Assembly (NCBI GenBank): GCA_043821445.1 | Contig: JBDRCT010000049.1 | Location: forward strand, 3,872-67,871 | Source of the DNA: Candidatus Omnitrophota bacterium | Lineage (GTDB): Bacteria; Omnitrophota; Omnitrophia; Omnitrophales; Aquincolibacteriaceae | Direction of reading: 5' to 3' | DNA length: 64,000 nucleotides | Program-made: the position numbers and the translations under genes | The notes under the pieces: model-generated | The model's input: the letters and a program-made list of their open reading frames with translations, nothing else | The model's database searches: none | What the model was told of the DNA's origin: nothing | Shown here: positions 22,068 through 58,012 of the stretch, piece by piece | Layout: the number at the start of each line of letters is the position of its first letter | Numbering within the stretch: position 1 is the stretch's first letter

Positions 22068-23567
22068 ATGAAAACGGCGATCGCAAAAAATACAGATACC
22101 TGGCTCTTAGGCCGCATCAAAAAAGATGAGATCACAAAATATCTTGATCAGGGCCGTGATTTCATTGATGACGATGCGATCTGGAAAAAGATCGAAGCGG
22201 CCCGGGAGCCTGATGCATCCACCGTGCGCGCCATTCTCGCGCGTTCACTCGCCATCCAGACGCTTACACCGGAAGAGCTCGCGACTCTGATTCATGTGAA
22301 GGATCCCGGCATGCTTCGCGAAATGCAAGAAGCCGCCCTTGCGATCAAGAAAAAAGTCTATGACAACCGGATCGTTACTTTCGCGCCGCTTTATATGGGA
22401 AATTATTGCGTCAATAACTGCGCCTATTGCGGATTCAAGCATGAAAATCTCAGCACGAAGCGCCGCGTCCTTTCACAGGACGAGATCCGTAGGGAAACTG
22501 AAAGCCTGACGGGAAAGATCGGCCACAAGCGCATTATCGCGGTCTACGGAGAGCATCCGCTGACCGGGATCGATTATATCCTTGAAAGCATGAAGACGAT
22601 CTACGACGTGAGGGTACCGACCAAGCACGGTTTCGGCAATATCCGTCGTATCAATGTGAATGCCGCGCCGATGTCGATCGAAGAGCTCGTTCGTCTCAGG
22701 GACGGCGGCCTTGGGACTTATCAGGTGTTTCAGGAAACCTACCATCATGAGACCTACGCAAAACTTCATCCGAAAGGGACACTCAAATCCGATTATCGCT
22801 GGCGGCTCTATGCCATGCATCGCGCGATGGAAGCGGGGATCAATGACGTGGGGATCGGGGTCCTGTTCGGGCTTTATGATTGGCGTTTTGAAGTGATGGC
22901 GCTTCTTTATCACGCGATCCACCTTGAGGCCAAGATGGGGATCGGTCCCCATACGGTATCATTCCCGCGTATGGAGCCGGCGCTCAACTCTGAATACGCC
23001 GAACATTCCCCCTATAAAGTATCCGACGAGGATTTCAAGAAGATCATCCTGCTCATCCGTCTCGCCATTCCTTACACGGGCATGATCATTACGGCGCGGG
23101 AGACTGCCCAGATGCGGCGTGATGCGATCGGTCTCGGGATCACACAGACCGATGCTTCCACTAAGATCGGGATCGGAAGTTACAGCGAAGAGGGAAAGGG
23201 CCAGGAATCCGAACGTCAGCAGTTCCTGTTGGGCGACACCAGAAGTTTGGATGAATTAGTCCGGGATTTCGCGGCAATGGGGCACATTACTTCCTTTTGC
23301 ACCGCAGGATATCGTTGCGGCAGGACGGGCAAATGTATTATGGACCTCTTGCGCGGCGGCCAGGAAGGGAAGTTCTGCAAACTGAACGCTGTGCTGACCT
23401 TTCAGGAATGGCTGGATGATTTCGCCACTCCCGCGACGCGTGAAGTAGGGCTCCGGGTGCTGGAAAAAGAACTTGAAGAGATCAAGGTAAGAAATCCCCA
23501 GGGGTTCCCGGTCTTTTATCAATTTCTTGAACGTATTCGCAAAGGGGAGAGAGATCTGTTCCTTTAG
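22068..23567 (+). CDS. HydG/ThiH-family radical SAM enzyme
   Basis: 'GNYCVNNCAYCGF' CxxxCxxC; C-terminal extra cysteines 'FCTAGYRCGRTGKC...FC' as in HydG-type; 499 aa. Confidence 0.65.
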   Translation: MKTAIAKNTDTWLLGRIKKDEITKYLDQGRDFIDDDAIWKKIEAAREPDASTVRAILARSLAIQTLTPEELATLIHVKDPGMLREMQEAALAIKKKVYDNRIVTFAPLYMGNYCVNNCAYCGFKHENLSTKRRVLSQDEIRRETESLTGKIGHKRIIAVYGEHPLTGIDYILESMKTIYDVRVPTKHGFGNIRRINVNAAPMSIEELVRLRDGGLGTYQVFQETYHHETYAKLHPKGTLKSDYRWRLYAMHRAMEAGINDVGIGVLFGLYDWRFEVMALLYHAIHLEAKMGIGPHTVSFPRMEPALNSEYAEHSPYKVSDEDFKKIILLIRLAIPYTGMIITARETAQMRRDAIGLGITQTDASTKIGIGSYSEEGKGQESERQQFLLGDTRSLDELVRDFAAMGHITSFCTAGYRCGRTGKCIMDLLRGGQEGKFCKLNAVLTFQEWLDDFATPATREVGLRVLEKELEEIKVRNPQGFPVFYQFLERIRKGERDLFL

Positions 23568-35222: not shown

Positions 35223-38200
35223 GTGAACCACTCTCGGTTATTTAAAACGCTCATTGCGCTTTTCACCGTTGTCACGTTTTCAACGACAAGCGTGATCTGG
35301 GCTCCGGACAGTTTTGCCGTGGCACAAGCGATCCGTGTTCCGGCTCCTGTTGCTCCCGAAGTTCCCATCCCTTATCAGGCCAAGCTTGATCCCGGCATTC
35401 AATTTTCAATCCCTCAGGAACTTGGGACGCTTCAATATTTCAAGGCCGGCAAAGGCCCGATGGTCGTTCATCTCCAGACCGCGCACGGTCATTATCAAGC
35501 ACAGCAACGGATCAGGGCGCTTCTGCATCATTTGGACAAACAGTATGGTATCAAAACACTCCTCGTAGAAGGCAGCGCGTTCAAGCTCGATCCCTCGATC
35601 CTGAATTTCTTTCCGAAAGATCCCAAGCTCACGCAAAAGGTCAATGACGCGCTCACGAAGCAAGCGCTTGTGAAAGGGCCGGAGCTTTATTTATTGGATG
35701 AGTTAAACGGTAAAACGAGTCCTGCGCCGCAAGCATTCGGCATCGAAAACCTTGAAGCGTACCGCGAAAACGGCCTGTCGTTCATCGATGTCCTGAAAGA
35801 AAAAAAGAAAACGGAGAAATTCCTCGCCTCCATGAACGAAGGGATCGAGCGTCTTTCCGCGGCGTACCTCAATGACGCGCTGAGGAATTATCTGAAGCAG
35901 CTTGAAGGTTTTGAAAAGAACCAGCTCCCGCTTGATGCGTGGCTATCCCTTCTGAAAAAAGAAGCGCTGAAGCGGCTGAAGCTCGATCTGACACAGCCGG
36001 GTTCCCAGCTCGACTGGCCGATGCTCGTTCGCGTTTTTAAGGTGCAGGAGCTTTCTTCAAAATTCGATAAAGATGCGTTCATGAAGGAGCGGACGGAATT
36101 TCTTAAAGTTCTGAAGCGCTTTCTTCCATCATCCTATGCTCAGATCGAGCAACTGCTCGAATCGGAACAGGCCAGCCGGCAATTACCTGCTCCCGAAACA
36201 GGCCTGCTTTTCGAGAACATGGTCAAGGCCCTGCCGCGCGATTTCAATTACGAGGCCTACCCGGACGTTTGTTATTTCGTTGGGCGTCTGCTTCTTCAAA
36301 GCGAATTGAAAGCACCGGAATTGATGCAAGAGGCCGAGAAGCTTTCCTCGAAAGTCGCGGACAAACTTGCCAAGACGCAGGCCGAAAAAAATCTCGTGGC
36401 ACTTCTGAAAGATTACCGGCTGTTGCAGAAGTTGTTCGCGCTAGAGCTCACTCCCGCTGATTATGATCAAATTCTTGGAGCGCGGAAGGCGGATGGTGGA
36501 GGACGATTGAAGCCTTCCAATCTTGTTAAGCAATTGAACGGCGCCATCCTCCATCCTTCATCCGGTATCCAAAGAGTTAAAGACGTTAAATTTACCCACA
36601 TCGCCGAACTTAATCAGTTATTCGACGCGGCCATGAAATTTTACGCCGGAGTGAAAGAGCGCGACGGTTTGATGGAGCAGATGATCGAAAAACGCCTCCG
36701 AGAGACCGGCGCCGGCAAAGTAGCGGTCATTACCGGCGGTTTCCACTCCGAACCATTCAAAAATTATTTTTCGTCGAAGGATTATTCGTACGCTCTTATC
36801 TCGCCGCGGATCACGGAAAGCGATGAAATAGGACATCAGGCGTATGTGGAGAATATGCTGAACTTTGCGCAACATTTACAGCGCAACGCGTCCGCCACAA
36901 TGCGTCGGTCGGATCCGTCCTCCGGCGGACAACGCGCAACGCGCAACGTAAGCAATTCTGCGTTGAGCGCGAGCGAGGCGACAAGAGAACTCGAATTCCT
37001 TTCTGACCCGCAAGTCTTGGTAGGTGATTACGGCATCAACGCCGCCGCCGTGCGCATCGAAGTCCGCAAGATCGTCTCCACCGTCGCCGGAAGGACGGCG
37101 CTGTTACAGACTATAGACCGCAGCCTACAGCCTACAGCAAAAGCTTTGGGTCCTCAGTCCCCGGATTCTGTTCTTCCGTCTGAAAAATCCCGCTCCGAGG
37201 CGAGAGCTGAGAAAAAGCCCGTAACGATTTCACGGAGGTTAATTGTTCTGTGGGGGACCGCAGCGGCAGTGGGCGGTCTATTGGCTATGGCATGCAGGTC
37301 GATTGCTGCACCGAGCGAAGTCAAGCTGGCTGTCAGCATTTCGTCTGCTCCAAACCTCACCCCGGCCGATCTTACCGGGTTTCCCGAAGCACCCAATCTT
37401 TTTACAACGATCTTTAACCCGGGCAGAGCCACGGTGCAGATCCTGGGGGATGATCAGGGACGAGGCATGCACTTTGCTTTTAATACGGGAACCGATGGTT
37501 ATGTGGGTGCAGGACTCGAGTTTTTTTTACCGGGAGTTAAAGATTCGGCAAATTTAAGTTCCTTGAATGAATTGCGTTTTGAGCTTCACGGGAATGTTCC
37601 GGGTGGCAAGGTCAAAATGGATGTCATCGATGCCGATGGCAAGAAGGTTACTGTTTACTTAACCGGTATTTCCACAACGGAAGGAAGAATCTGGCAAATT
37701 CCGGTATCGATCCTTCAGGGCGTTAATATGGTCCGGATCCGCGACATTAATTTTGTGGCGGAAGGACCTCAGAACTTTAGCGGAGAACTCCACGTTAAGT
37801 ACAATAAACCCTCCGCAAGCCGTTCGGAAATGCGCGGGGAGGAACGATTCACGAAAGAACAAATCCAGTCAGCGCTGAAGGATTTTCAACCAACGTGGCT
37901 CGATTATGCGTTTGTCGAGACCGGCGCAAAGCGCAGGATTGACGCCGCCAACTTTCTCGGGGAAACCAAAGACCCTCGCGTTGCTGACGCGTTGATCAAT
38001 GTTTTGAAAAGTGATAAGCATCCCGGTGTTCGAGTCGCGGTCGCCAAAGCTCTCGGCAAAATTACAGATCCCCGTGTTTTTCCGGCACTGAGAGATGTTT
38101 TTGGGAAAGAAAAAAATGACGATGTGTGGTTCACGATCGCGGGAGTCCTTTGGGAGGCAGAAGACCCGTGGATCCACACACGGATGGCCGCTGCTCTCGC

Positions 38201-41200
38201 GGATCATTCCCCCTTTGTCCGGAAAATGGCCGTCCAGTTTTTTGGGGCGAATCATGTAGCCAGTGCCATTTCCATGTTGCGGAATGCTTTAAATGATGAT
38301 TCCGAAGATGTAAGAACAGCTGCCGCGGCGGCTCTCGAATGGATCACGACCACATCGCTAGCAGAGATTTCCCGCTCGGAAATGCGAGAGGTGACAAAAC
38401 CATTGGCCGAGGCGGTTGCCGGGAGGATCCGTTATGCCGCAGCTTTGGGGAAGCCCGGTTCCGGGAAGGGAACCTTACTACAGCGATTTGTTGCGGAACT
38501 GAACCGTCATCTTGACAAAAACCATCCGTACGTGATCTTAAGCACCGGAGATGTTTTTCGGGCGATCGCGGAAAAAGTTGCCGCGAAGAAAGAAGGAAGA
38601 GTCCCGGACCTCCAAAAGGTAGGGATCTTTGAGAGCTTTACCGTCCCGGATTCCGTCATCAGCGCGATGCAGGAAGGGAAAATCATCTCAGATGAGATCA
38701 CGATCGATCTCGTCAATGAAGTTTTACGGCTGGATTTCTTCAAAAAAGCCCGCGGTATTTTCTTTGACGGTTTTCCGCGGTCCGCCGGGCAATTGGCGGC
38801 ATTAGAGCAAGGCAAGATAGGGATCGGGGATAAGCCGCTGGTCATGGATTTTAATTTTATTTTGGACATCGAAGATCAAACCGTGTACAAGCGCGCCGCC
38901 AGCCGTGTTGCCGAAGAAAAACTTGCCGCTGTTCGCGAAAAAAGAGAACCCAAGATCCGCAAGGATGACCTTCCTGAAAGGGTGAAGACGCGGATCGAGG
39001 ATTATGAGTCGGTCACGAGCCCGGCGGTCGAAACGAAGCGCGGTCAACCCGATACCCTCACAATCAATGCCAACGTGAAGCCGATCGACGGCGTTTATGA
39101 AGATTTCCTCCAAGGACTTGACGCGTGGATCGCAATGCACCCCCCTCGCTCGGAAGCGCGGTTCACAGCTGGGGAAGAGGGGATCGTCCGTCGGGCAATG
39201 AAAGATTTGGAGATGGGTTGGTTTGATTCTTTTTTTGAACGCGAGATCGCGACGCCGCGGCGCGTGGCCGCCGTTCAAAGCCTTGATGCGATCAGAGCAT
39301 CTCTGAGGGTTTCCATATTAAGGGATCTTTTGGCGAAAGAGAAAAATGGCGATGTATGGTACGCGATGGCATCCGCTCTTTGGCAAGCAGGGGACCCGTG
39401 GATCCGCCAGCGGACGGTCGCCGCTCTCGGGGAGGACTCCTCCTCTATACGCCAAATGGCCGCCCAACTTCTTGGGGAGAATCATGAAACAAGCGCTTTT
39501 TCCGCGTTGACGGCGGCCTTGAATGATCCTGATGAAAGTGTGCGGGAAGCCGCCTCGGAGGCTCTCGAATGGATCATGACCACATCGCCGGTACTGGCGG
39601 CCCGCTCAGAAGTGAGGGCGAAACTTCAGTCGCCTTTTTTTACATTATCCGGCGAACGAAAGATTGGTGAATCGATCCGCATGGAGAGGATGTGGCCTGA
39701 GATTCATGAAATGAAGATCTTGATCTCACTCCATCGGGGGAAAAACGGGAAATTGCTATTAGATCTATGGACACATACTCCGGTAATTGCCGGGAAGATC
39801 CACACGGATGCGGTCAATTGGGAACTGGACGGTCCCGAGGAGGAGATCCTCGCGGTTTTTCAACGTCTCCGGGAACCCGCGGTACAGCAGCCGTTGCGTG
39901 AAGCCATTGAGCGAGATCTAGAACCAGGTGATTTTTATTCAGAAAATGAAAGGTTTGAAACGAAGCTTACTCCGTGGGTCGAGAAGCTTTTAAATGGGGA
40001 GATCGTTTCCGTCGTTACGGGGCAATCAGATCTCAGTCAGCAGCCTCCAGCAGAAGCTGCCGCGAGAGTTTTAGCCGAAAGCCGCTCCGAGATGAGGCTG
40101 ATGCCGCTGCTGGCGCTTGCGGACGGGAGTGGGCTTGCCGGCGTGATCAGCCAACTGCGTCAAGCCTGGCACGAAAACGCTCTTGTGATCGTTGCGGTCG
40201 GCCTGGGTCTTTGTGAAATAGGTTATTGGGCCTATAGAACGTGGCAGTTAAGGAAAAAGCTTAGCCACTTTCCCAATGCCGTGAAAAGAGTGAAGGATGC
40301 GGTTAGGAGGTTTGCTGAAAAGACAGAAGAGGACGAACGGCGTTCGTCTGCGAATGATCTCGAATCCATTTATGTCGACGGATTTTTGACGCGTATTCTA
40401 TGGCGCAATATTCCGGATTCAAAACTTTTACAGATCGAACAAGAAATCAAAGAAGGTCGGGATCCGGTCCTTCAATTAGTGCCTGACGGGAATGAAGTTC
40501 TAATGGAATGGACGAGACAAGTTCTTGAACTCCGCTCTTCGGCCTATTTTCCGAGTGGCGGCGAGGATCAATACGTCTCATCAGAACCCCAGGGATGGTA
40601 CGGGTCGATTGAAGTCACCGCCGGCGAGCAGTCCCGCTCGGAAGCAAGAGGAACGCCGAAAGGAGGCGATTGGGAAGCCGCGGCGCGGGCCAGGGTATCA
40701 GAAATACAACGAAAAGAGCAAGAGGAGGAGGCCCGGGCGTTGGCTAAGATGGAAGGAGAGCGAGAGGCGATTCGGAGCATGACAACGCCACAGCTTCTTG
40801 CGCTGAAGGAAAGAGAAGTCATGGCGTTCAGCGCGGCACAGATCCAGGCGTTGACGCCTGCGCAGCTTCGTGTGCTGGAAGGGACAGATCAGGAGAAGTG
40901 GCTGAATGCCCGAGCTAATGAATTGCTGGCACAGCAAGCAAAGATTATGAAAAAGTCCCGCTCGGAAGTGAGGGTTTTTGGAAATGATAGGTTCATACCG
41001 CTCATGCGGGCAACGGTACTGTCACTCGCGATAGCAGGCCTCTCGGGATGCGCTCCAGTAATTGCAGGAATTAAAACTATGCCTTTACCTCAAGGCGAGG
41101 AATTGGGTATTCCGTCGCCCCTAACCATTGAAGAATTTCAGGAAGCAATAAACAATATGTTTGATCCCGATTCACCCACTCCACCGGATCTCAGTCTGGC

Positions 41201-44200
41201 GACGTTCCGGGAATGGCAGCGGGATGCTAAATACATGGAGGCTTTTACCCGAAAATACTTGCGCGCATTGGGGTATCAGATTCGTAGTGAAGACTGGCTT
41301 CGTGGCTTTGCCATTTGGTATGCCGCGCCAGATCACGGCGATCGTCCCTATTGGGAATATCAGGAAGAGATTTACGAGAGATTAGGGGAGTGGGAAGCAA
41401 ATGGCTATATTATAAGATTCTCCGTCCCGATTTTTCCGTTTGGCCGCTCTGAAGTGAGAAATACGTCAGTCCAGGCTGAGCAGCCCAAACATCCCATGTT
41501 TATCACCTTAGAAGTAAATAAAGACCTGCAAGGTTTGGATTTCGGCGATGTTGAAAAAGCAATCGCGAGCGGGAAAATGGCTATTGCTGAAGTTTCGGTT
41601 GATTGGGCAAGGAAAATCAAAGAAACGTATCCCAATGATGTCTACACTATTTTTATAACTCCTTTAAGCGAAAATCAAATCAGAGAAAGAATGCAAGAAA
41701 CGGGACAAACGCGGGATGCCGTTATTTTCGAGGAGATGAGCAGGCGACAAAAAGAACGTGCGCTAGAAAAACCTACCCCTGAAGAGAAACAACTCTCACG
41801 CGCCAAAGGAGCTGTTATCGAAATGGCGAGGCAGAATGAATATAATGCCGTTATTGTCAGTAATGAACTAAAAGATTTAGAAAGAGACGATGTCCGATGG
41901 GCCGGCGATGAAGGAGCTGCAGTGGTTGAGCAGTTTATGGCTGCTGTTGATGCTGCCCGAAAGGCGGGAAAAAAATTAATTCTATATTCGGGTCCTTCCG
42001 CTACCGGAAAATCCCCCTTGTGGAACCAAATACAAAAAAAACACGGCGATCAATTTTCACGCATTGTTCTTTATACAACGCGTGGCCTTCGCCCAGGTGA
42101 AAAAGATGGAGTCGATTTTCATTTCCGTTCCGTTAATGATCTTCAAAATCTGATGAATGAAAAAAATGGTCGATCCGAGGCGCGAGCGTCAGAAGAAACT
42201 CCTGCTGACAGGTTGATCAGTGGTCGCAAATTTACCGTTATCGATGTTGCGGAAAATCCCTATGCTATTAAAGTGATCAGTGATCCCGACTACAAGAGCC
42301 TGATCCTGTATGGGTTCTCGAATGCGGCTCGTGCTCTGGGAGACCTGGTCGTGCCTTTTTTTATCACGAATAAGTTGTCTGTTACCATTGACGGTATTTC
42401 GCAAGATAGTACCGTGATATTACAAAAAAAAGTGATGCCAGCTAGTGATCAATTCCAAACTTATCTGGAAAACAATGACCTGCCAAAAGCGATCGAACTT
42501 CTAAAAAAAATGGTTGAGATCGATCAAGAGATCATGCGCAGGGGATACATCCTCACCGATTTTAAAGTGGAAAACTTTGGCATTACAGCGGATGGTAATG
42601 TGCTTTTGCTCGACCCTACGGGGGTGGTTGATGGGCTTGGTCGCACGCAACCGCCGGAAGATTTCTACCATTATTACAATCAAAACAATTTCTTGTTTGT
42701 AAAAAGTGGAAGTTATCATCGCTTCTATGATGATTACAAGAACAACAAACATGCGAAAGAACTGTTCCAAGCTTTTCGCGATCTCACAGGTGTTGACTTT
42801 ACAGGAATATTACAAACAACAAAAATGAATGTGATGATTGCCTTGGCTCTCTCGGAATCTTTTGACCCCGATAATCCATTTAGCAAGCATGTTCAGCACG
42901 CGAGGCACTACCTGGAAGGGTTGACGCCCTTTGCCGCATTGTCCCAGCAACTTAAAGAGCCGGTTGCTATGCCTGCCATCCAAGTTGAAGCGGAAAGTTC
43001 TTTGCGGGGGTTTTTAGGCCATGAACAAAGGCGGGAATTTAATTTACAAGACTTGTCCATTTGGAACGAAGAAAAAGCGATCAATATTCATGTCCCTTTA
43101 CAGGAAACTAAACTTGTAACTATCGAATCCCGCTCTGAAGTGAGGGACACTCAGACCACTCCGAGCCGTTCTGCCGCGAGACAGACAGCTCAGATCGGCA
43201 GGACGTGGAAGGATTTATTCAAAGAAAATTTCAATTGGGGTATTGAAGAGGGCCTGATCACGGCGGGGTTCAGCATCGGACTCTACGCCGGACTTTTTGG
43301 CCTACCGTTTTTAATGCCATTAGGACTCAATCCCGCCCATACGGCGCTCATCGGTACCTTGCTTGGGGGCGCTCTTTATCCTGCTGTTGTCGCTGTCCGT
43401 GCAAAGTGGTTGCAAGCTGCAAAGACGGAAGATGCGGGGGGATTTGATGTAAAGACATTCGTTGATACGCTTTTAGAAGCCTCCCGGGAAGCGCGAAGCC
43501 TTTTTGATTCGGAGCAATTGGATCTTGCAAATAATATTGAGAGCATTGTATTCCCGAGAATAAGGGCGAGGAAGCTTACGTACGCCCAGCGTGCTGCTGC
43601 GAAAGCGGAGTTGAATGGCAGGTTGCAACGGGTGAAAGAAGAGATCGCTCAGATGGAGACGAGCGGAAATTTATCGGGTAATTCCCAATCTGTATTAAAT
43701 GCCCGTTTGAGGGAGATCGAGAATTCATCGAGTGATTTCGAGGCCGCATTAACTTTCCGCTCGGAAATAAGGCAGATCCTTGAGGCATTGAGAAAAGAAA
43801 AACACGTTGCGGGTGTTATAAGCACGTTTATTTTTGGGTTGGCCGGGTTTCTTTTTGGAATTTATCAGGGGATATCATTTTTTTCAAGATCAAATATCAG
43901 GCCGTATAGTACGGATGACGTATTTTGGATGGCTATTTTTGTGCTATTGGGGGGAGAATTATTAGGCGTCGCCGGTGGGATTATTGGCCTCGCCGTTTAT
44001 GGCGTTGTTTATGCCGGATTTTCTATCGTTCGTCTCGTTGTGCACGCTTTTTGGAGCGTGGCGGGTTCGGTGAGACGTAGTGGATATAGAGCGGGAAGGG
44101 GACTTGCGGGGGAAGAACGTACGACAGGTCATGCTCCGAAACGCTCGGAAGTGAAGGTTACGGAGAGGGAATTCCAGAGGGCATTGAAGGACCTGGAGAC

Positions 44201-47200
44201 CGATTGGTTTGACACGTTCTTCATTAAGAACGCAACGCAACGGCGCGTGGGCGCTATCAAAGTCCTCGGTGAGAGCAAAGATCCGCGCGCGGTTCCAGCA
44301 TTGACCGGGTTATTAAAGGATGCCGCGGTCCGTTCGTCCGCCGCTGAAACGCTCACTTCTATTAGATCCAGCGTTCCCGCGTTGCAGGCCGAAGCCGGGT
44401 TTACAACGGAGGAAGCGGGGATATTCCGCCGGGCAATAGAGGACCTGAAATTCCAATGGACGGATCTTTTCCTGTTTGAGAGAGAAACACGCCGGCGTGT
44501 GGGTGCCGTCAAAAGTCTTGGTGCGATCCAAAATCCGGCGCTCATTCTCGAGTTATACAGTCTTCTGGTGAAAGAGGAAAAAGAAAAATGGGTCAAGACC
44601 GATGAGTGGTTCGCGATCGCGGGAGTCCTTTTGCGAAAAGGGGAAACCCGGATCCTCGAAACAGTTTTTGATTCTCTTACGGATGATATCCCCGTTGTCC
44701 GCAAACGGGCCGCCGATTTTCTCGGGGAAAATCATGTGGTGAGCGCCGTTCCGGCGCTGACCCTTGCTTTGAAAGACAGTTTTGTGAAATTCGCTGCCGC
44801 AGCAGCGATCGAAAAGATCACGGGCACACCGCCGTTCAAGAAAAAGGGAGCCTTCGAATTTTTTGGCGTGAATCCTGTCGTGTTGCCGAGGACGACCTTT
44901 TTTGCTTCAGGGGGCTTGGGTTTTCTTTTCGAATTAAAGCTCATTTCGCCGTTCGTGAAGCCAGGGGACCCCCTTGGGAAAATCGCGGGCCTTCTTCTGT
45001 TGTCCTTGGGAAGCATCATCGGAAGCTATATCCTGATATCGATCGTTCAAAACAGGATCGTCGGCCTTGACCGTCTCGGACGGCCGCTTGTGAAAAAAGA
45101 AAAAGCGTCTGCCCGCTCGGAGGCGCGGAACTTGGCATTGAGCGTGCCGGCAGGGCTTCTCGAAAAGGCTTCCGATTGGTTGCATAGTCCGTGGGGGATC
45201 GTGGACTGGATCGTGGGGGGCGTTCTTTTTGGCATGGCAGCGGCTTTCGCGTTTGCCACCCTTTTGGTGGCCCTTTATACGATCGCTTCTATTTGGACCT
45301 CTTTCCAGAAAAGTGCCATCAGGAGTTTGGAAGAGAAGGAGGGCTTTGCCGCGATAGAGTTTCTGAGGGGCCTGTTGCAGAAAACCAGGGGATTTTCTTA
45401 TCTGATCTTTTCGGATGTTTATAACGAAACCGAACTTGCGGCTATTGCCGCCCTGACACACCTCAATGATTCCTTCTTGACCGGTTTTTTAACTTCGGGC
45501 GAAGGGTTTAACCGGTATCTCCGCGCCAGTGACGAGGTCAAAGCGGCCGTCGACCGCTGGAGTCCTGAAGCGTTCAGCGCCCAGATCCTCCGGAACTTAT
45601 CGTCGAATGATCTTTCACCGGCGCAATTGATTGAGAAAAGGGAGGATCTTGCCGGGCTCGGGATCTTGAGGCCTTTTTTGGTGGCGGCCTTCTCTCATTC
45701 CGATCCCAAGATCCAACGGATGGGGCTGGAAATTTTGGCAGGCTACGAGTTCTTCACGTTTGGCAGGGTGCCCACGGACCATGAAATATTCGATCCGGTG
45801 ATCCGGGAAGCCCTCGAGCCGTTTTTGCAAAAGGCGATCTCCCAGACTTCCGACGACGACCTTTTCGATAAGACAGCGATGATCATGATCCGGCAGGGTC
45901 GTTCCGGTGAGATCGTGCCCGGGGCGCTCCAGAGAATGTCCGCCGGGAACCCGGACCACTTTCCGCTGCTTGTCAAAGAACTTGCGACCGCGGAATATCT
46001 TGACGCGACTTTATTCCATCCCGACTTGAAGATCCGGGCACTGGGGCTAAAAGCCATCGAAGATACCGGTACGGTCGCTGCTCAAGACCAGTATGCTGAG
46101 AAATATCAGGAACAGCTCATTCCATTACTTCAGGATCCGGACAATGATGTTTGCAGCGGGGCAGCTATTTTACTGACCGTCGTGGGTCACGGAAAATCCG
46201 TGCTTCAAGCCGCGGCGTCCAGGAATTGGAACGAATTGCCGGAGCTTGTTAATTATTTTGATCTGCATTGGAAAGAAGCGGTCGAACTCGCCGGGCCCGA
46301 ATCGTTGCCTCTTTTGAAGTTATTGATCGACCGGAGGAAAGCCTGGGCATACGCGGACGACCCGATTGACGGTGTGGATGCCGCTATTCTTGGGAAGAGC
46401 CAGGCAGGATTGAAATTCGACCGGAGCCACATTATCGCTAAAAAAACAGAAGAACTCCGGGAATTGAAAGCAGCGGTGGACCGTTTGTCCGCCCGTTCTG
46501 AGGTCCGCCATTTGCGCCGGTTGGGCGCTCCGGACAGGGACATCGGCGACATCGTGGAAACCGTACGGGAGTCCCTGGACGGGGCAGTGACGGACGATGA
46601 ATCGCTTTGGGCCGCGCAGCAGCGGATGGGGGATTTGCCGGACCTGCTGAAAGGGCCCAGGACCGAACGGGAACTTGGGATCGAGATCGGTGAGTCCTGG
46701 AAAATACCGAATGTTCATTATCAATCCCGCCGTTCCGAAGCCCGTTCCGAAATCAGGGAACGTCTCGCACCGGTTTTCAGGGCTTTTGGGATTGATGAAT
46801 CGAGCGGAAAAACGGAAATTGAAAAAACGAAAAACCAGGCGGACCGATGGTATGTCGAAGGAATGACGCGGCAGCATGTGCATCCCAGAGGTACCGGAAC
46901 TGACGGCGCGGACGATAAGGACGGCCCCTATGCGCCGCTCCACATAAGAAATGAGAAAGGCTCGCTTAGCGAAGTTTCTCACACTGGAAATGCCGTGGTC
47001 ACGGCGATGATGGAGGACCAGGAGTTGCAATCGGTCGGGGTCTATCAACGTGCTTTTCTTGATCATCATCCCCGGGAGCGGGAGTATCTTGAGGCCGCTG
47101 CCAAGACAAATCTCATCTGGAATACGCTCGACGGCGGTATCGGCGAGAGTTTGATGCGTGAGGCGTGGCTTTTGAACAAGGGGCTTCGATCGCGTTTGAA

Positions 47201-50200
47201 GGATATTTTATCTGCGGGTGATAAGGCGGATCCGATCTATCAGGAGGCGTTGGCCGCTCTCAAGGACGCCGAAGAAAGCGGCAAGACGAGGGATATCCTT
47301 GCGGCACTCAGGAAGATCGAGAAGTTGGGCGGTTTTGACCCGCTCCAGATCAAGATGGGAGCGAAAGGAACAGACCTGGGACGCATAGAACAGATCCGTG
47401 ATCATGAGCTCTTCGTCGGAGATGCGGAGGCCCGGTTGCTTTTCATGATAGATCTCGGGCGGAGCGGACAATTCGATAGGGTCGCGTTCCAGCCTCTTGT
47501 GAATGATCCATCGAAGGCCTCTTATATCACATTACTGAAGAAGCCCTGCCTCTGGGACCTTGTTGAGGGACGCCCCCAGCCCAGATCCTATTGGACGGCG
47601 CTCTTGGACGCCGGGGTCAAGGTCATGACAATGGTCGAACAGAAAGAGCTTCCGAAATTTGAGATCGCATTGGGCGAGATCGTTGGATTTCCAACGGCCG
47701 ATGCGAAGGATGCTCGTAAGAGGCAGCCGGGCGGTCATGGGCAGTTAGGGGTCTATTTTGTGGTGGATTTTACGGAAAATGCCCCGGCGAAAGACGGGCG
47801 GCACCATATCCGCTTTTTCGGGAACGGGGACAACCGAAAGGGAAATCCGGAGGCGATCGTGGCCGGGTTCGCGATCGTTGAAAGATTGCCGATCATAAAG
47901 ATCACGACCGCCGCCACCGCGATCGATAAAAAAGGCGGCAAGGAAGTGGTCCGCATCATTCAAAAGCTGGTCCGGGGAGTCAAAAAAATCTTTAATGTTC
48001 TTGATCAATGGGAAGAAATCGATGCCATCAATGCGGGCCAGGAAAAGATCTTTTACGCTGCGGGACAGCGGCACGGTTTTGGCCAGGAAGGCAGGCAGCT
48101 TTTCAATACGAATCTGTTCTATTTTAATATCGATATGCTCCACTCGATCCTGGTCGAGATGCGCCGGATCACGGGAGATGGTGAATTTTTGGACGGGATC
48201 ATGCCCTTCTTATTCGACAAGAGCGCCAAGGCGCAGGAAATTGACGGCAAAAAATACGTTTCGATGGATTCGGCGATCGGGTATGTGGTTCATAAGCTGA
48301 ACACCTTTTACACGACGGATCCCCGCTTTGAATCTCTGAGACAAGAGTACGGTCCCCAGCTTCTCTACTATATAAACTATGGCCGTGATATTTTTGCGCC
48401 CAAGAAAAAAGCAGAGGACCAGTATCTACAAGAAGGAACGGACTATTACGGCCCATTCGATGAAACCATCAAGAATTTCCGCGACGCGGTACCGGGGCTT
48501 ACACCTCCCGGATTCAGTCTTACGGATCCTTTTGAAAAGGACGGAAGTGCCGTGGACAAGAATGGAAATCCTATTGATTCCAAGTTCTGGACCGAAGCCC
48601 AGCATTGGCTGGATTCCTTGGGACTTTCGCGCGTTCGACGAATGACCTCACTGAAGGTGGAGGGCCGCGTGACGCTTCGAAATGCGGAATATATCGGCGA
48701 CGTGGAGATCATCAACCGGTATGGTCGCAAAGACAAATCGAATCGGGCCCAGAGAGTTGTTTTAAGCAGCGGCCAGTACCTTGAGCAGCTCAAAGCGCGC
48801 GGTTTTTGGGCCGATGATCACTTGGTGCTCGAGGATCTCCGCATCACGATCGACGAAGATGGCCGGTTGCTTACGATGGCGATTTCAATGGCCCATACTC
48901 CGGAAGGCGCTTTGAGGATCCGTGATACAGAAGAGGCCATAAAGCTATTTGATGAGTTAGGGGCCCGGGGAGCCAATGTTCGTGTCGGACGCGGTTTCAC
49001 GGTCGAAAGAGGCGGAGAACTCATCATTGATCCCAGGGATTTCGGTCCAGGTGTGGATTTCTTCGTCGAGTCCAACGTGGTGATCGCCAGTGGCGTTACG
49101 ATCAACCTGCAGCTTGACGGGAAAAATCACGTGATAATCGATAGCGGAACTGTTTTTTCCGGTCCGTCCGGGCTCAGACTTGATCTGGTGCTTCAAGAAG
49201 GCGAGTGGCTCCACATTGGTAAGGGTGCTTTACAGGATGTGATCGCCGGGCTAGCGTCGGAAGAAACCCCGAGAGGGAAAACGATGACGCTCTTTCTTCA
49301 TTACCGAGAGCTTGTTAAAGCGGATGAGCTCGAAAGGGCGTTTTCTATCCGTAAGATCATAAACTCATTGGTATCCTACCCTGTGGGGGATGCCGGGATA
49401 TTCCGGAACGCTCAATGGGTAAAGAATCTGATCGACGAATTTGAGAGGACGCCTGGCCACCACTCCCGTTCTGAAGTACGGGGAGCGCTGGGGTGGTTCG
49501 AGAACGGGAGAGTACTGACCTATGAAAGAATGATCGCGGAAAGAAAAAAGGAGATCGATAAGCTCCGGCGGAGCATTACGGATGCCAAAACGCCTGAAGC
49601 GAGACGGCTGGTCCCCGGCTACGAAGCCAGGGTTCGTGACGCCCAGGGAGCTATTACCGGTTATCAGAGGCAATTATTTGCCGCCGCGATTCCCGAACCA
49701 GAAATTCTGGCGCGACTTTTGGCCGTCGTCCCGCCGCAAACACTCTACGATATCTATCAGGCTGCCAGGGCGGTTCTGCCGTTCGATGGGGCCATTCAGC
49801 CGCGGGATATGCTTCGCTTTTTCTATGGGGTGCCGTCTCAGGGTCAGGGCCCGACGATGCAGAACTATGTTTCAGCGATCGGAAATTTTCTCATGGAAAG
49901 ACAGGAAGCGCTGGTGCCTGCTTCGGCCGACGCAAGATCTTTGGAGATGCCGCAAATCCCGCGTGAACCCTTTATTCGTTTCTATCCATTACAACTCGTG
50001 GCTCTGATACAAATGGCTCGTGGGTTCTCACGCGAAACGCTCCTTGAGATGCTCCGCGTTCAAACCGTTCCTGCGGCGGAGCAAGAAAGTTCTCAGGTAG
50101 GGACCGTGAACGGCGCAAAAACAGAGCTCTTTGCTCGTCCGGCGAATGACCAAGTACTGTTTCTCGCTGTTTTTCTCAAGAACTTATTGGCTGCGGTTGA

Positions 50201-52784: not shown

Positions 52785-53768
52785 ATGTCAACACGAGTTC
52801 TAAGCGGTACACGGCCCACGGGAAAACTGCATCTCGGGCACCTCCTGGGAACTCTCGAGAACTACAAGAAATTGCAAGGCCAGGATGCTTTCTTCATGAT
52901 CGCGGACCTGCATGCCCTGACCACGGAATATGAAGACAAGACCCGGATCGCGGAGGACGTGACAGAAGTTTTGATCGATTATTTGGCAAGCGGTCTCGAT
53001 CCGGCGCAGTGCACGATGTTCGTTCAAAGCGAAGTGCTGGAGCACGCCAATCTTGCGCTGCTTTTTTCGATGATCACACCGCTGGGCTGGCTGGAACGGA
53101 ACCCGACCTACAAGGACCAGCTTGCGGAACTGAAGGGCAAGGAGCTTCACACGCACGGTTTTTTGGGATATCCGGTGCTTCAGGCCGCGGACATCGCGCT
53201 TTATAAGGCCGAAAAGGTCCCGGTGGGTGAGGATCAGCTGCCGCATCTGGAACTCACCCGCGAGATCATCCGCCGGTTCTTTCATCTTTACAAGAAACAG
53301 GTCTTTCCGGAACCGGAGGCTGTGCTCACGCATGCGCCGAAAGTACCGGGGCTCGACGGCCGGAAGATGAGCAAAAGTTACGGCAACTGTATTTATCTCG
53401 CGGATTCCAAAGAAGAGGTCATCAAAAAAGTGAAGACGATGGTGACCGATCCGGCGCGGAAATTGCGGACCGATAAAGGACATCCGGAAGTTTGCCCGGT
53501 CTTTTTCTATCACAAGCTTTTTAATCAAGATCATGTGGAAACAGTCGCGCGGGAATGCCGGGACGCGGCGCGCGGCTGCGTGGATTGCAAAATGGAAATG
53601 GCCGGAAAACTGAACGGATTTATGGACCCGATACGGGAAAGACGTGAATCATGGATGAAGAAAAAAACGGAAATACGACAGATCCTCGACCGGGGAGCCA
53701 AGAGGGCGCGGGAAGTGGCGAGCCAAACCCTCAAGGAAACCCTGCAGGCGATGGGCCTGGTGTCGTAG
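52785..53768 (+). CDS. trpS: tryptophanyl-tRNA synthetase
   Basis: 'TGKLHLGHLLG' HIGH and 'KMSKS' motifs. Confidence 0.9.
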   Translation: MSTRVLSGTRPTGKLHLGHLLGTLENYKKLQGQDAFFMIADLHALTTEYEDKTRIAEDVTEVLIDYLASGLDPAQCTMFVQSEVLEHANLALLFSMITPLGWLERNPTYKDQLAELKGKELHTHGFLGYPVLQAADIALYKAEKVPVGEDQLPHLELTREIIRRFFHLYKKQVFPEPEAVLTHAPKVPGLDGRKMSKSYGNCIYLADSKEEVIKKVKTMVTDPARKLRTDKGHPEVCPVFFYHKLFNQDHVETVARECRDAARGCVDCKMEMAGKLNGFMDPIRERRESWMKKKTEIRQILDRGAKRAREVASQTLKETLQAMGLVS

Positions 53769-53809
53769 CTTCTCCCGCGACGCCTCTGGCAGAACTCTCC
53801 GGACTCCCG

Positions 53810-54556
53810 ATGATTCCGAAAGAGTCTGATCCTCTCCACGTCAAGATCGCTGTCTATGACGGGCCGCTGGACCTTCTCTTAGACCTTATCCGGAAAAACG
53901 AGATGAACATCTATGACATTCCGGTCGCGGAGATCACGCAGCAGTATCTGGATTATTTGAAGGTGATGAAGCAGTTGGATCTCGAGGTCGCAGGCGAATT
54001 CATCGTGATGGCCGCAACCCTCATCTATATCAAGTCCAAGATGCTGCTCCCCACGGACAAGGATGAGGAGGAAGGCGAAGGCGAAGATCCCCGCGCGGAG
54101 CTCGTGCGCAAACTTCTCGAGTATCAGGCCTTCAAAGAAGCGGCCAAGGAGCTCGGGCTTCTTCAGACCGAACGCGGCAAGGCGTTCACGCGCCAGATCA
54201 CGGATTATTATTTGGGAGAGTTGGATCCCGAAGACGCGGGGGTCGATACTTTTAGTGCCAATTTTTTTGACCTGATCGTCGCGTTCCAGAATGTCCTCTC
54301 GAAAAAAGAACCCAAAAAAGAGCACGAGGTTTTCGAAGAAGTTGTCTCGATCGAGGAAAAGATGATCCAGATCCAGTCCTACCTTGACGAGAAAAAAAAG
54401 GTCTCTTTCAACGATCTTTTTTCGGAGCGCTGGACGCGCAACGAGCTCATTGCCACGTTCCTTGCGGTCCTCGAGCTCGTCAGGACCCGTTTTGCCTGGG
54501 TGCGGCAGGACAAGCAATTCGGCGAGATCGTCATTGAAAAACGGGAAGAGAATTAG
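53810..54556 (+). CDS. scpA: segregation and condensation protein A
   Basis: 'YDGPLDLLLDLIRKNEMNIYDIPVAEITQQYLDYL' ScpA N-terminus. Confidence 0.8.
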   Translation: MIPKESDPLHVKIAVYDGPLDLLLDLIRKNEMNIYDIPVAEITQQYLDYLKVMKQLDLEVAGEFIVMAATLIYIKSKMLLPTDKDEEEGEGEDPRAELVRKLLEYQAFKEAAKELGLLQTERGKAFTRQITDYYLGELDPEDAGVDTFSANFFDLIVAFQNVLSKKEPKKEHEVFEEVVSIEEKMIQIQSYLDEKKKVSFNDLFSERWTRNELIATFLAVLELVRTRFAWVRQDKQFGEIVIEKREEN

Positions 54557-54567
54557 TATAACAACTG

Positions 54568-54640
54568 CCCAAGTGTCAAAGTATCAACGTATCAAAGCGT
54601 CAAAATGCTTTGATGCCTTGACACTCTGGAACTTTGACAC
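54568..54640. promoter_or_regulatory. shared intergenic motif block (AGTGTCAAAGTATCAA, palindrome ATCAAAGC-N8-GCTTTGAT, CCTTGACACTCTGGA, TTGACA x2)
   Basis: same 15-16-mers recur (one inverted) at 56641-56700. Confidence 0.35.
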
Positions 54641-54690
54641 AGATGAATGGATCACACATTTTGTTTTCTTAACGGGAGCTATTATAAATC

Positions 54691-55554
54691 ATGAAACCCA
54701 CTGCGGCACAAGAACGGGAAAAGCAAGCCAGACTCAAGACTTTGCGCAAGGAACTGGATCAGGAGATCCAGGAACAGCTCGAGGAGAAGAATGCCCTCGA
54801 GGATTTGACCGGGGCCCAAAGATTCCAGATCGAATCGTTACGCGAAGAGGACCTCCATGATCCGAAAAAGGCCAGGCAGGTGGTGGAAGCGCTGATCTTC
54901 GCGTCTTCAAAGCCCCTGACACCCGCCGAGATCCGCAAGGTCACGAAAGTCTTGACCGTGGGTCAGATCGAGACGATCGTGGCGGAGCTGAAAGAAGATT
55001 ATCAAAGGAGTGAACGTTGTTTTGAGCTTTTGGAGATCGCGGGCGGGTATGAACTTTCGACCCGGAGGGAATTCGCGCCGTGGATCCTGAAGATCGAGTT
55101 GCAGCGCAAAGCGCGCCAGGCGACACAGTCGGCGCTTGAGACGCTGGCGATCCTGGCTTACAAGCAGCCGCTTACGCGTGCCGAGATCGAAGCCTTGCGG
55201 GGGGTGGACACGAGCGGTGTGTTGAATACGCTTATGGAAAAGAATTTCATCAGGATCACGGGCAAAAAAGAAGTTCCCGGAAGGCCGTTCATGTATGGGA
55301 CCACCGAAAAGTTCCTGGAGCATTTCGGTCTCAAGGAGTTGAGGGACCTTCCGAGCATTGATGAGATCCGCCAGATGGTGGATAGCTCGGTCAAAAAAGA
55401 AGAATTGATCGGAACGAAGAAGATCGTAGACGTGCCGCAAAGCGACACGCCACAGGACGGAACAACACCAGCTTCCGGAATTCCGGAGGACCTGTCCGAG
55501 GACAGGCAAGCAACGGGAGAGGCGACACCCCATGAGAGCGAGGGAAAAATTTAA
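54691..55554 (+). CDS. scpB: segregation and condensation protein B
   Basis: tandem winged-helix ScpB sequence 'EALIFASSKPLTPAEI...LEIAGGYELSTRREFAPWI'. Confidence 0.8.
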   Translation: MKPTAAQEREKQARLKTLRKELDQEIQEQLEEKNALEDLTGAQRFQIESLREEDLHDPKKARQVVEALIFASSKPLTPAEIRKVTKVLTVGQIETIVAELKEDYQRSERCFELLEIAGGYELSTRREFAPWILKIELQRKARQATQSALETLAILAYKQPLTRAEIEALRGVDTSGVLNTLMEKNFIRITGKKEVPGRPFMYGTTEKFLEHFGLKELRDLPSIDEIRQMVDSSVKKEELIGTKKIVDVPQSDTPQDGTTPASGIPEDLSEDRQATGEATPHESEGKI

Positions 55555-55555
55555 C

Positions 55556-56635
55556 ATGGACCTGAGCCAGCTACGCAAGAAGATCGACGAATTGGACAAG
55601 AAGATCATCGGGCTTTTGAACGAGCGGACCGAATTTGCGCGCGAAGTCGGCAAAAAAAAGACCGAGGCCGGCAAGGAGATCTACGCCCCGGAACGGGAAA
55701 GCGAGATCTACCGGAAGATCGACGGCCTGGCGGGGAAAGGGGTCCTGCCGAAGGACGCCCTGAAATCCATTTACCGGGAGATCATGTCGGCGGCGCTCGC
55801 GCTGGAAAAACCGCTCGTGATCGCCTACCTCGGGCCCGAGGCGACCTTTACGCATCTCGCGTCACTTTCCAAATTCGGTTCAAGCGTGGAATACCGTTCC
55901 TGCGTGAGTATCGGCGAGGTCTTCCGGGAGGTCGAACAGGGCCGCGCCGATTACGGCGTGATCCCGATCGAAAATTCCATCGAAGGGGCCGTGAGCCACA
56001 CGCTGGATATGTTCATTGATTCGGACCTGAAGATCTGCTCCGAGATCTATTTTGAGATCGCGCACAACCTGATGTCGAATATTCAAAATATGAAGCAGAT
56101 CAAACGCGTGTATTCCAAGGCCGAGGTATTTGGCCAGTGCCGCATGTGGCTGGAGTCACATCTGCACCACGCCGAGCTCATGGAAGCTTCGAGCACGGCT
56201 GCGGCGGCCAAGCGCGCGGCGGACGAGGATGGCGCGGCGGCGATCGGTTCAAAGCTTGCGGCGACGCTCTACAATCTGCCGATCCTGGCGGCCGAGATCC
56301 AGGATTTTTCGAACAATGTGACGCGCTTTCTCGTGATCTCTAAGCAGATCCCGGGCCGGACCAAGAGCGACAAGACCTCCATCCTTGTCTCGATCCGTGA
56401 CAAGGTGGGGGCGCTTTATGAGATGCTTTTGCCGATCAAGAAATACCGGGTGAACATGACCAAGATCGAATCGCGCCCGTCCAAGAAGAAGGCATGGGAT
56501 TATTATTTCTACATCGATCTCGAGGGACATGTGGAAGATCCCAAGGTCCGGAAGATGCTTGCGGAGATGGAAAAAAAGGTCAAGTTCCTCAAAGTGCTTG
56601 GCTCCTATCCCGCTGCGGGAAACACGAAAGACTAA
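55556..56635 (+). CDS. pheA: bifunctional chorismate mutase / prephenate dehydratase
   Basis: N-terminal AroQ CM helix 'LRKKIDELDKKIIGLLNERTEFAREVGKKK', PDT domain 'AYLGPEATFTH', C-terminal ACT. Confidence 0.85.
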   Translation: MDLSQLRKKIDELDKKIIGLLNERTEFAREVGKKKTEAGKEIYAPERESEIYRKIDGLAGKGVLPKDALKSIYREIMSAALALEKPLVIAYLGPEATFTHLASLSKFGSSVEYRSCVSIGEVFREVEQGRADYGVIPIENSIEGAVSHTLDMFIDSDLKICSEIYFEIAHNLMSNIQNMKQIKRVYSKAEVFGQCRMWLESHLHHAELMEASSTAAAAKRAADEDGAAAIGSKLAATLYNLPILAAEIQDFSNNVTRFLVISKQIPGRTKSDKTSILVSIRDKVGALYEMLLPIKKYRVNMTKIESRPSKKKAWDYYFYIDLEGHVEDPKVRKMLAEMEKKVKFLKVLGSYPAAGNTKD

Positions 56636-56640
56636 AAAAC

Positions 56641-56700
56641 AGTGTCAAGGTTTCAGAGTGTCAAGGTATCAAAGTAGGCAGTTCCGATACTCTGACACAA
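56641..56700. promoter_or_regulatory. shared intergenic motif block (AGTGTCAAGGT x2, GTATCAAAGT, TTCAGAGTGTCAAGG = revcomp of CCTTGACACTCTGAA)
   Basis: paralogous to 54568-54640. Confidence 0.35.
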
Positions 56701-56705
56701 ACAAA

Positions 56706-57958: not shown

Positions 57959-58012
57959 TCAGCATAGCCTAATGAAGGCATAAGAGATAGCGATCGGAAG
58001 GGGATAAAAAGC

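Follow-up and report, generated by a model that had tools for sequence, protein, structure and literature searches.

Giant open reading frames (ORFs) are a hallmark of the Omnitrophota, and whether their products act as one chain or are cut into several is an acknowledged open question. Proteins of 20,000 to 147,000 aa, including the 'Archaeovorins', have been described from this phylum (bioRxiv 10.1101/2023.11.21.568195; PMC10066038; bioRxiv 10.64898/2026.06.07.730766); their authors suspected post-translational cleavage, which they attributed to C39 or S8 peptidase domains, with no cleavage points known, and the 2026 survey treats signal peptides predicted at internal positions as artefacts and removes them. 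The stretch analyzed here, a window of 64,000 nt from a Candidatus Omnitrophota bacterium (contig JBDRCT010000049.1, positions 3,872 to 67,871), carries a 17.4-kb ORF (35223-52631, plus strand, GTG start; 5,802 aa in translation) in the middle of which a sequence-only reading of the window had noticed a lipoprotein-type signal peptide. Why would an export signal lie so deep inside a protein? That reading offered two explanations, i.e., liberation and individual targeting of the protein's modules, or internal initiation of translation. Our analysis points to the former: judging from the sequence, we think it moderately probable that the giant ORF encodes a polyprotein of about 21 separate units joined by the motif R-S-E-x-R, and this motif would make the question of one chain or many directly testable. 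Positions given below are those of the window, and features lie on the plus strand unless stated otherwise.

A short motif divides the giant ORF

RSE.R occurs 19 times in the giant ORF, together with one RSEVK, compared to 0.12 occurrences predicted from composition, and none is found in the 11,469 aa encoded by the other genes of the window. Splitting the ORF at these sites yields 21 modules (numbered 0 to 20) with 20 junctions, and no domain match in the window ORF crosses a motif. Two modules, 1 and 8, begin with export signals of the lipoprotein or twin-arginine translocation (Tat) type, and a strongly hydrophobic 15-mer is present in eight modules other than the head, in five of the eight at 11-26 residues from the module start. 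Since the motif's codons draw on all Arg and Ser codon families, the motif appears to be selected as a peptide. The protein is also poor in Cys, with six residues in 5,802 aa (0.10%) versus 1.58% in 31 other genes of the window (a ~16-fold purge), and two of these six are the lipobox Cys of modules 1 and 8.

A search with module 0, the head of the protein, defined a family of 56 loci (8 in GTDB genomes and 48 in metagenomes) plus 10 database proteins, cited below by labels such as L001 and P0014. Of the eight GTDB records, six bear the name Candidatus Omnitrophota or Omnitrophica and the other two read 'uncultured bacterium'; the named loci all come from Omnitrophota metagenome-assembled genomes (MAGs). 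Module 0 is up to 90% identical in L005 and 72% identical in L001, and a module 0 search of IMG/VR gave no viral relative. Where a locus is long enough to tell, module 0 almost always stands at the head of a very long ORF, and this ORF usually runs off the contig. The layout is shared, consisting of a signal peptide and module 0, variable cassettes split by R-[SAGP]-E-x-R and, where the end is visible, a conserved last module. Lineages differ in the flavor of the motif: RSE.R is used in the window, L001, L006, L014, and L017, and an RAE.R-type in L033 (16 sites), L019, L021, and L038. Family ORFs range from 0.9 to more than 5.8 kaa (thousand aa), the L010 ortholog having only 1,917 aa, and all of them are Cys-poor (0.08% over 108 kaa). 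The neighbors of the giant ORF in the window, i.e., tryptophanyl-tRNA synthetase, ScpAB, aromatic amino-acid genes, S1, FabF, LpxA, the glutaminyl- and glutamyl-tRNA synthetases and a hydrogenase-like cluster, are housekeeping genes and therefore place it on a bacterial chromosome.

Export signals lie behind the motif

The flagged segment, 41004-41051, had been described as a lipoprotein-type signal ten codons past RSEVR motif 8 (40959-40973), and it proved to lie exactly there and to agree with a PROSITE-type rule. Translation of 40959-41051 gives RSEVR-VFGNDRFIPL-MRATVLSLAIAGLSGC, with the ATG at 41004, the Cys codon at 41049-41051 and MRATVLSLAIAGLSGC corresponding to residues 1928-1943. 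Export signals were called with rule-based patterns, standing in for SignalP and LipoP, the lipoprotein pattern being {DERK}(6)-[LIVMFWSTAG](2)-[LIVMFYSTAGCQ]-[AGS]-C (PROSITE PS51257-type). Read from the motif end, the module 8 signal (40974-41051) consists of VFGNDRFIPLMR, then ATVLSLAIAG, then the lipobox LSGC (41040-41051). In all 5,802 aa the pattern finds only LSLAIAGLSGC in module 8 and AAVGGLLAMAC in module 1, whose Cys lie 26 and 30 residues, respectively, from the end of the motif. The module 8 Cys is 16 residues from the Met and 26 from the motif end, with an Arg within the first seven residues either way; a Cys 15-35 residues from the N-terminus and a Lys or Arg in the first seven are thus present only if counting begins at the post-motif residue or, for module 8, at the Met. 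In the primary product neither signal is N-terminal, as they occupy residues 1918-1943 and 662-691 of the continuous ORF.

Module 8 (40974-41459, 162 aa) is an orphan with relatives only in the family members L001, P0014, and P0015. In L001, an independent MAG, the ortholog reads RSEVR-ILENDRFMPIVRTTILLLAIAGLPGC (signal IVRTTILLLAIAGLPGC), with the Cys, the Gly at -1 and the hydrophobic core retained and with core substitutions that are uncharged and mostly hydrophobic. The two modules are 74% identical end to end, with a ratio of nonsynonymous to synonymous substitution (dN/dS) of 0.26 and dS of about 0.56. In P0014 and P0015 the module 8 domain sits inside a module, and P0014's copy starts with a signal. 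A word-indexed homology search with module 8 alone gave no match, and an exhaustive phmmer search gave two real relatives, both family members, and three low-complexity false matches. An AlphaFold model of module 8 from single sequence was unusable (predicted local distance difference test, pLDDT, 43).

The second internal signal of the sequence-only reading, SRRLIVLWGTAAAVGGLLAMA, is also real; it lies at 37230-37292, whereas 37215-37280 had been reported, an offset of about 12-15 nt. Positions 37191-37295 translate as RSEAR-AEKKPVTISRRLIVLWGTAAAVGGLLAMAC, i.e., motif 1 (37191-37205) followed by the module 1 signal (37206-37295), which comprises AEKKPVTI-SRRLIV with a twin-arginine core at 37230-37247, a mildly hydrophobic, Gly/Ala-rich core (WGTAAAVGGLLAMA) and LAMA-C, readable as a lipobox or as AXA, with the Cys at 37293-37295 following a c-region A-M-A. 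The label 'Tat-like' was fair for the SRRLIV core, but the same signal is also of lipobox type and ends in a Cys that had been overlooked. Compared to the Tat consensus S/T-R-R-x-F-L-K, module 1 has S-R-R-L-I-V-L, i.e., the Arg pair and two hydrophobic residues without the Lys. Closer matches follow motifs in relatives, namely TRRDVLK in L034 and PRRDALK in L006.

Across the family (42 ORFs, 335 motif sites), 4/6 lipobox matches and 5/6 Tat-like signals fall within 45 residues past a motif, together 9/12 compared to an expected 17.8% (p = 2.4e-5); a fifth lipobox comes after the variant RSEIG. Spacing past the motif (lipobox Cys at +17 to +35, Arg pair at +9 to +28) corresponds to natural signal-peptide lengths. 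Examples of signals behind the motif include RSEVR followed by TVTLRVLTAAIMGFAFSAIA and EQ in L006, RSEVR followed by RSLVWVLSVVAVLAALGVAAFS in L014, RSEVR followed by TPFARITKAIFFAAVMFMLMLPASVRA and Q in P0014, RSEAR followed by VSALRSTV...SLVGLAGC in P0014 (lipobox Cys at +35), and RAEVR followed by SSWIKLVFAAILCGAGC in L026 (lipobox-like Cys at +17). Near-consensus twin-arginine signals are found in L034 (RSETR followed by EARGLDVTRRDVLKAGALGVLTAAAQAL; signal TRRDVLKAGALGVL), L006 (...RPMPRRDALKTAGLLGLISALG; signal PRRDALKTAGLLGL), and L051 (...FSRRRLLAASAFAFAAAWG; signal SRRRLLAASAFAF). A crude rule for Sec signal peptides is satisfied at 4.9% of motif ends versus 2.0% of other positions (p = 0.001). 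Cys in general is not significantly enriched at +15 to +36 past the motif (7/49, p = 0.1); only the lipobox-specific test holds.

Cassettes begin and end at the motif

Homology between family ORFs begins and ends at the motif, and cassettes have been shuffled, duplicated and lost exactly there. Window module 8 pairs end to end with L001 module 5, and window module 11 with L001 module 10, while the second half of one L001 module, in which the junction now reads NPEER, shares 87% identity with window module 3. A second decayed site at a homologous junction is QAEAG, inside window module 13. L008, which is closely related and belongs to the same MAG as L005, lacks modules 8-14 and has its cassettes in the order m5, m7, m6, m4, m15, m15, m16, m17, m18; each of them begins exactly 15 nt past the first position of an RSE.R. 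Relatives likewise have complete enzymes between motifs, including an NAD-dependent epimerase, a 2-hydroxyacid dehydrogenase and a 6-phosphogluconolactonase-like protein (1-214 of 225). Modules are under purifying selection (dN/dS 0.16-0.36 vs. L001). A homology search with the HEAT module 4 at E <= 1e-6 gave no match.

Module 16 (46746-49481), a 912-aa orphan, is 62% identical to its L006 counterpart (19046-21196), compared to only 42% for the module 0 pair of these two ORFs, which suggests cassette exchange between lineages. Module 16 was also compared with L012 (8407-11121).

Residues and codons at the junctions

The site has the consensus [S/A/G]-R-[S/A/G/P]-E-[V/A/L/M/I]-R, with flanks that are unconserved except for a small residue at -1 (S/A/G in 49% of 322 sites). 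At the same 322 sites, the first post-motif residue is L/F/Y/W in 5.9% versus a background of 18% (p = 1.6e-10) and Pro in 0.9% versus 4.9% (p = 9e-5), and the next position is normal. This depletion agrees with cleavage just behind the second Arg, leaving a stable neo-N-terminus. Two other mechanisms were considered and rejected: cleavage after the Glu, an N-end-rule idea concerning motif position 4, for Leu is at background level there, and phosphorylation or Ser-nucleophile self-cleavage at the motif Ser as a general mechanism, for whole lineages use Ala, Gly or Pro.

Double sites also occur. L017 has a recurrent 12-residue spacer, RSEAR-SSLRTES[TA]TGAV-RAEVR, at residues 1796-1817, 1934-1955, and 3782-3803, and P0001 has RVEAR-SRVRTESASTV-RAEVR; the spacers may be excised peptides.

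At the nucleotide level (313 sites from all lineages), the motif has the codon consensus c-CGC-KCC-GAR-GTG-CGG, with ~0.45 bit per third position versus ~0 outside. This synonymous bias, to which we return below, could reflect accurate decoding, or recombination or gene conversion at the junctions, which would also fit cassette shuffling.

A candidate polyprotein and its alternatives

The giant ORF holds several complete units, and a short conserved site stands at every unit boundary (20 junctions in the window). The compact site, its location in linkers, the double sites with spacers, the lineage flavors and targeting signals belonging to individual units give it what looks like the anatomy of a polyprotein. 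We propose, with moderate confidence, that cleavage at the motif, probably just behind its second Arg, divides the product and frees new N-termini for Sec, Tat or lipoprotein targeting. The cut would be made by a dedicated endopeptidase, most likely Arg-specific, acting during or soon after translation and on the cytoplasmic side, because the motif sits on the n-region side of the internal signals. Each freed unit would then act as an ordinary protein: kinases and HEAT modules that lack signals would remain cytoplasmic; module 8 would expose its lipoprotein signal (VFGNDRFIPLMR-ATVLSLAIAG-LSG, then Cys), be exported, lipidated by Lgt and trimmed by LspA; module 1 would expose its twin-arginine/lipobox signal; and other units would expose Sec signals or N-terminal membrane anchors. 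The proposed units comprise a secreted, putatively Ere/ChaN/TraB-like head, HEAT scaffolds, two kinases (an adenylate kinase and a permuted guanylate kinase), membrane proteins and lipoproteins, as well as many orphans. Most of the argument is carried by the twin-arginine signals. The Tat pathway exports discrete folded proteins, and since a cassette within a 640-kDa chain is not one, a Tat signal at the start of a cassette would be hard to use without cleavage.

Several points weigh against this proposal. While the marked cassette boundaries, the framed enzymes and the post-motif signals stand behind the earlier suggestion that modules are liberated and individually targeted, cleavage itself is deduced from them. 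Pfam and NCBIfam searches of the window ORF, and Pfam searches of the L006 modules, L014, and L017, revealed no peptidase domain. Module 0's own Sec signal would place that module opposite the n-regions of the internal signals. A classical signal follows only about 5-8% of motif sites, and in the large set any hydrophobic 12-mer is only modestly enriched past the motif (7.8% vs. 4.8%, p = 0.012). The positive-inside orientation test was undiscriminating, with 10 first segments N-in and 11 N-out, and because of this we dropped the argument from topological conflict except for the pair of modules 0 and 1. We found no locus in which neighboring cassettes are separate genes and none in which the ORF ends at a motif. 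Finally, the motif's synonymous bias, with CGY for the first Arg at 83% versus 41%, AGY for Ser at 2% versus 31%, and NCC at 60%, leaves room for a role of the motif at the nucleotide level.

Internal initiation, in which the modules would be made from internal starts and the Met of MRATVL... would be a real start, can hardly be maintained. It has in its favor the ATG at 41004, directly ahead of the signal-like segment, and motif codons (GAAGTGAGG) some of which are faintly Shine-Dalgarno-like. However, no Shine-Dalgarno-like sequence is found 4-20 nt before 41004, motif codons vary such that the likeness is unconserved, and L001 has Val (GTG) in place of this Met, with another Met three residues upstream. 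There is no ATG, GTG or TTG ahead of the module 1 signal, and no start codon in the first 40 codons of modules 2 and 11. Moreover, dozens of independent loci each hold a single frame free of stops over about 20 junctions, which internal initiation would not maintain; ribosomes therefore read through the junctions. Since the signals are internal and have no usable internal start, their membership among lipoprotein signals hinges on upstream proteolysis. We also regard it as quite improbable that the signals are fossils, captured with cassettes from free-standing genes and no longer functional whether or not the chain is cut. The cassettes are indeed mobile and heterogeneous, the decay of several junction motifs indicates that relics exist in these ORFs, and modules 8 and 1 have no free-standing homologs. 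Against this, the module 8 signal has been kept relative to L001 at dS ~0.56, with its Cys and Gly(-1) intact and only uncharged changes in the core, in a protein otherwise purged of Cys 16-fold, and canonical signals recur behind the motif in many unrelated cassettes and lineages.

Alternatively, the product could be one uncleaved giant membrane protein in which the 'signals' are transmembrane helices threading the chain and R-x-E-x-R is a linker (basic and membrane-proximal, for docking, or a translational pause). Published surveys describe such proteins with a 'signal peptide plus TM' (transmembrane) architecture and suppress internal signal-peptide calls. The mixed orientation of first post-motif hydrophobic segments mentioned above would agree with this, the segments at residues 673, 1653, and 1933 of the window ORF could alternate, and most motif sites have no hydrophobic segment behind them. 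We nevertheless consider this account unlikely. It leaves unexplained the spacing of lipobox Cys and twin-arginine pairs after the motif (9/12, p = 2e-5), as well as why, in a protein purged of Cys, two of the six that remain belong to lipoboxes. Following the exported module 0, the helix of module 1 would have to be inserted N-out, with about five positive charges outside and its lipobox Cys facing the cytoplasm, and an alternating topology would put the adenylate and guanylate kinases outside the cytoplasm. Lastly, a linker role gives no reason for the depletion of Pro and aromatic residues at a single post-motif position.

Relation to known systems

MARTX toxins of Vibrio have conserved N- and C-terminal regions and strain-variable effector cassettes, which are released by cleavage in short unstructured linkers. 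Their internal cysteine protease, activated by host inositol hexakisphosphate (InsP6), cuts after Leu; they carry glycine-rich RTX-type repeats and reach eukaryotic cells by type I secretion. The giant ORF resembles them as a giant protein with conserved ends (modules 0 and 20) and middle cassettes that vary between close relatives. It differs in having no GG.G.D nonapeptide and no match to Peptidase_C80, HemolysinCabind or another peptidase, as well as in its R-x-E-x-R site, its N-terminal Sec signal and its cassettes with Sec, Tat or lipoprotein signals of their own. A MARTX-like, prey-directed multi-effector array is conceivable, exported via its conserved ends and cut at R-x-E-x-R inside a bacterial or archaeal host cell, where the signals would hijack the prey's export machinery and place effectors in the prey envelope. 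The producer is presumably a predatory or parasitic member of the Omnitrophota, and activity outside its own cytoplasm would accord with the Cys depletion (0.1%) and the conserved ends; we give this idea little credence.

Viral polyproteins with internal signal peptides are known from the Flaviviridae and other RNA viruses, e.g., pestivirus NS2 (PMC3113308) and the phlebovirus glycoprotein precursors (PMC4974537). Like the giant ORF, such polyproteins hold many unrelated mature proteins per ORF, with a short conserved protease site at the junctions, and their internal signals start translocation of the next unit and are removed by host signal peptidase. Unlike them, the giant ORF is chromosomal, has bacterial lipobox and twin-arginine signals and no relative in IMG/VR, whereas the viruses are translated in eukaryotic cells at the endoplasmic reticulum. 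With the giants of its own phylum it shares HEAT repeats, metabolic enzyme domains, many hydrophobic segments and mostly unannotated sequence. However, the present family is smaller, is headed by module 0 (which has no Pfam match), lacks a C39 or S8 domain and has an explicit junction motif. Neither of the two Omnitrophota giant-protein papers searched mentions a junction motif, a polyprotein, or lipoprotein or twin-arginine signals.

Precursors with several cassettes, such as yeast alpha-factor, animal prohormones (cut by Kex2 or furin at basic sites) and cyanobactin precursors of the PatE type, yield small products that are usually copies, and are processed in the secretory pathway. They too have repeated short, often basic sites, and spacers between double sites, comparable to RSEAR-SSLRTESTTGAV-RAEVR in L017; the units of the giant ORF, in contrast, are unrelated folded proteins of 80-900 aa. 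In the Streptomyces Rieske protein Sco2149, an internal Tat-dependent signal forms the third helix of one small membrane protein. Twin-arginine signals can thus lie away from the very N-terminus of a translated chain, but the module 1 signal differs in standing at the head of an independent cassette, 670 residues along a protein of 5,802 aa. In the literature searched we found no description of a polyprotein strategy of this virus-like type in bacteria, and nothing closer. If cleavage were confirmed, the viral polyprotein strategy would be seen at work in a cell, from a chromosomal gene, with one ORF supplying more than 20 unrelated cytoplasmic and envelope proteins in fixed stoichiometry. This would also imply a protease of new specificity, still to be found, and evolution by the shuffling of cassettes, and the topology and localization of such proteins would have to be predicted cassette by cassette.

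Modules of the giant ORF

Module 0 (35223-37205, 661 aa) heads every family member. It opens with a Sec-type signal, MNHSRLFK-TLIALFTVVTFSTTSVIWA-PDSFAVAQA (35223-35330), which family members retain, with ...NAFA where cleavage would occur, and contains the conserved segments HxQTAHG (35469-35489), LLVEGS (35559-35576), and ITGGFHS (36729-36749). Its tail (residues 625-661) is disordered, with the end motif at pLDDT below 50, and includes RIEVR (37053-37067), likely a variant site, which is RAEVR in L001 and RSEVR in P0003. As a candidate assignment, module 0 may have an Ere/ChaN/TraB-like fold (erythromycin esterase/ChaN/TraB-PrgY/TIKI superfamily). There was no Pfam or NCBIfam match at E <= 0.01, including TraB_PrgY_gumN, Cofac_haem_bdg, and Erythro_esteras, no PDB sequence matched a module 0 profile at E <= 10, and Foldseek against PDB gave nothing significant. 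Module 0 is a weak candidate for the cognate protease because neither Foldseek nor profiles were significant and its own Sec signal would put it on the wrong side of the membrane. No conserved neighboring protease gene was found at family loci, which are flanked by housekeeping genes and, where paralogous, differ in synteny. No Tat component is present among the annotated ORFs of the window, all housekeeping. In P0001, module 0 is interrupted in frame by three ~20-25 aa repeats like EYGVRSTA...TPYAFRRT, and in P0004 by GGRSNP...SPRND; these may be repeat-element insertions tolerated in frame.

The motif reads RSEMR at motifs 2 (37821-37835; an overlapping double site, RSEMRGEER, spans 37821-37847), 3 (38373-38387), and 6 (40083-40097). 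RSEAR is found, in addition to motif 1, at motifs 4 (39147-39161), 7 (40635-40649), 10 (42171-42185), and 14 (45114-45128), and at motif 16 it overlaps a second site in RSEARSEIR (46731-46757). Besides motif 8, which directly precedes the flagged signal, RSEVR stands at motifs 5 (39603-39617), 9 (41445-41459), 11 (43131-43145), 15 (46494-46508), 17 (49467-49481), and 18 (50331-50345). The remaining sites are RSEIR at motifs 12 (43758-43772) and 19 (50805-50819), the variant RSEVK at motif 13 (44142-44156), and RSELR at motif 20 (51672-51686).

Between these sites, module 3 (38388-39161) is a complete, motif-framed adenylate kinase by Pfam and NCBIfam (profile 5-210 of 212), and module 9 (41460-42185) is a circularly permuted guanylate kinase, with profile ~75-150 first and the N-terminal third bearing the P-loop (2-64) last; L024 shares this permuted order, at 67% identity. 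HEAT repeats were recognized in modules 2, 4, and 13 (Pfam, NCBIfam). The decayed QAEAG (44385-44399) marks the point where a HEAT unit homologous to module 4 starts (RSEAR-FTAGEEGIV vs. QAEAG-FTTEEAGIF). Beyond the HEAT units and the two kinases, the modules had no convincing Pfam or NCBIfam match; module 10 (42186-43145) gave a weak match (E = 0.004) to the FAM69/PIP49 secretory-pathway kinase domain. Module 6 has a membrane anchor, NALVIVAVGLGLCEIGYWAY followed by RTWQLRKK (40176-40235), whose copy in L008 begins 4 residues past the motif. The first hydrophobic segment of module 12 (43803-43883) lies 11 residues past its motif, and that of module 14 (45207-45296) 26 residues past.

Module 20 (51687-52628), the conserved C-terminal module, has the tail ...IATRA, is 76% identical to the last module of L010 and is also last in L021, L022, and L038. 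Tails of last modules end in a small residue plus Ala (...IATRA, ...IARSA, ...IQRSA, ...LEISA, ...AIAA), and such conserved tails are seen at the ends of the window ORF, L010, L021, L030, L038, L040, L047, P0003, P0004, and P0014. They could serve as secretion or recognition tails.

Other genes of the window

Downstream of the giant ORF lies the block ScpA-ScpB-PheA-HisC-DAHP synthase-TyrA-S1-FabF-LpxA (53651-63846, with LpxA on the minus strand). The same ScpA-to-LpxA block is directly upstream of a giant ORF led by module 0 in L014, L015, L017, L021, L024, L029, and L033, and a second, paralogous giant ORF may lie just past position 64000; positions 63847-64000 contain nothing recognizable as its start. 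Elsewhere, a gene at 20760-22067 encodes a HupF/HypC domain fused to a radical-SAM (S-adenosylmethionine) plus BATS protein and adjoins a second radical-SAM/BATS gene (22068-23567), both of them downstream of a hydrogenase/Mrp-like membrane cluster (12500-18178). Near the start of the window, two adjacent genes for class I Glu/Gln-type tRNA synthetases (237-1517 and 1988-3676) are followed by tRNA-Gln(CTG) on the minus strand (3757-3830).

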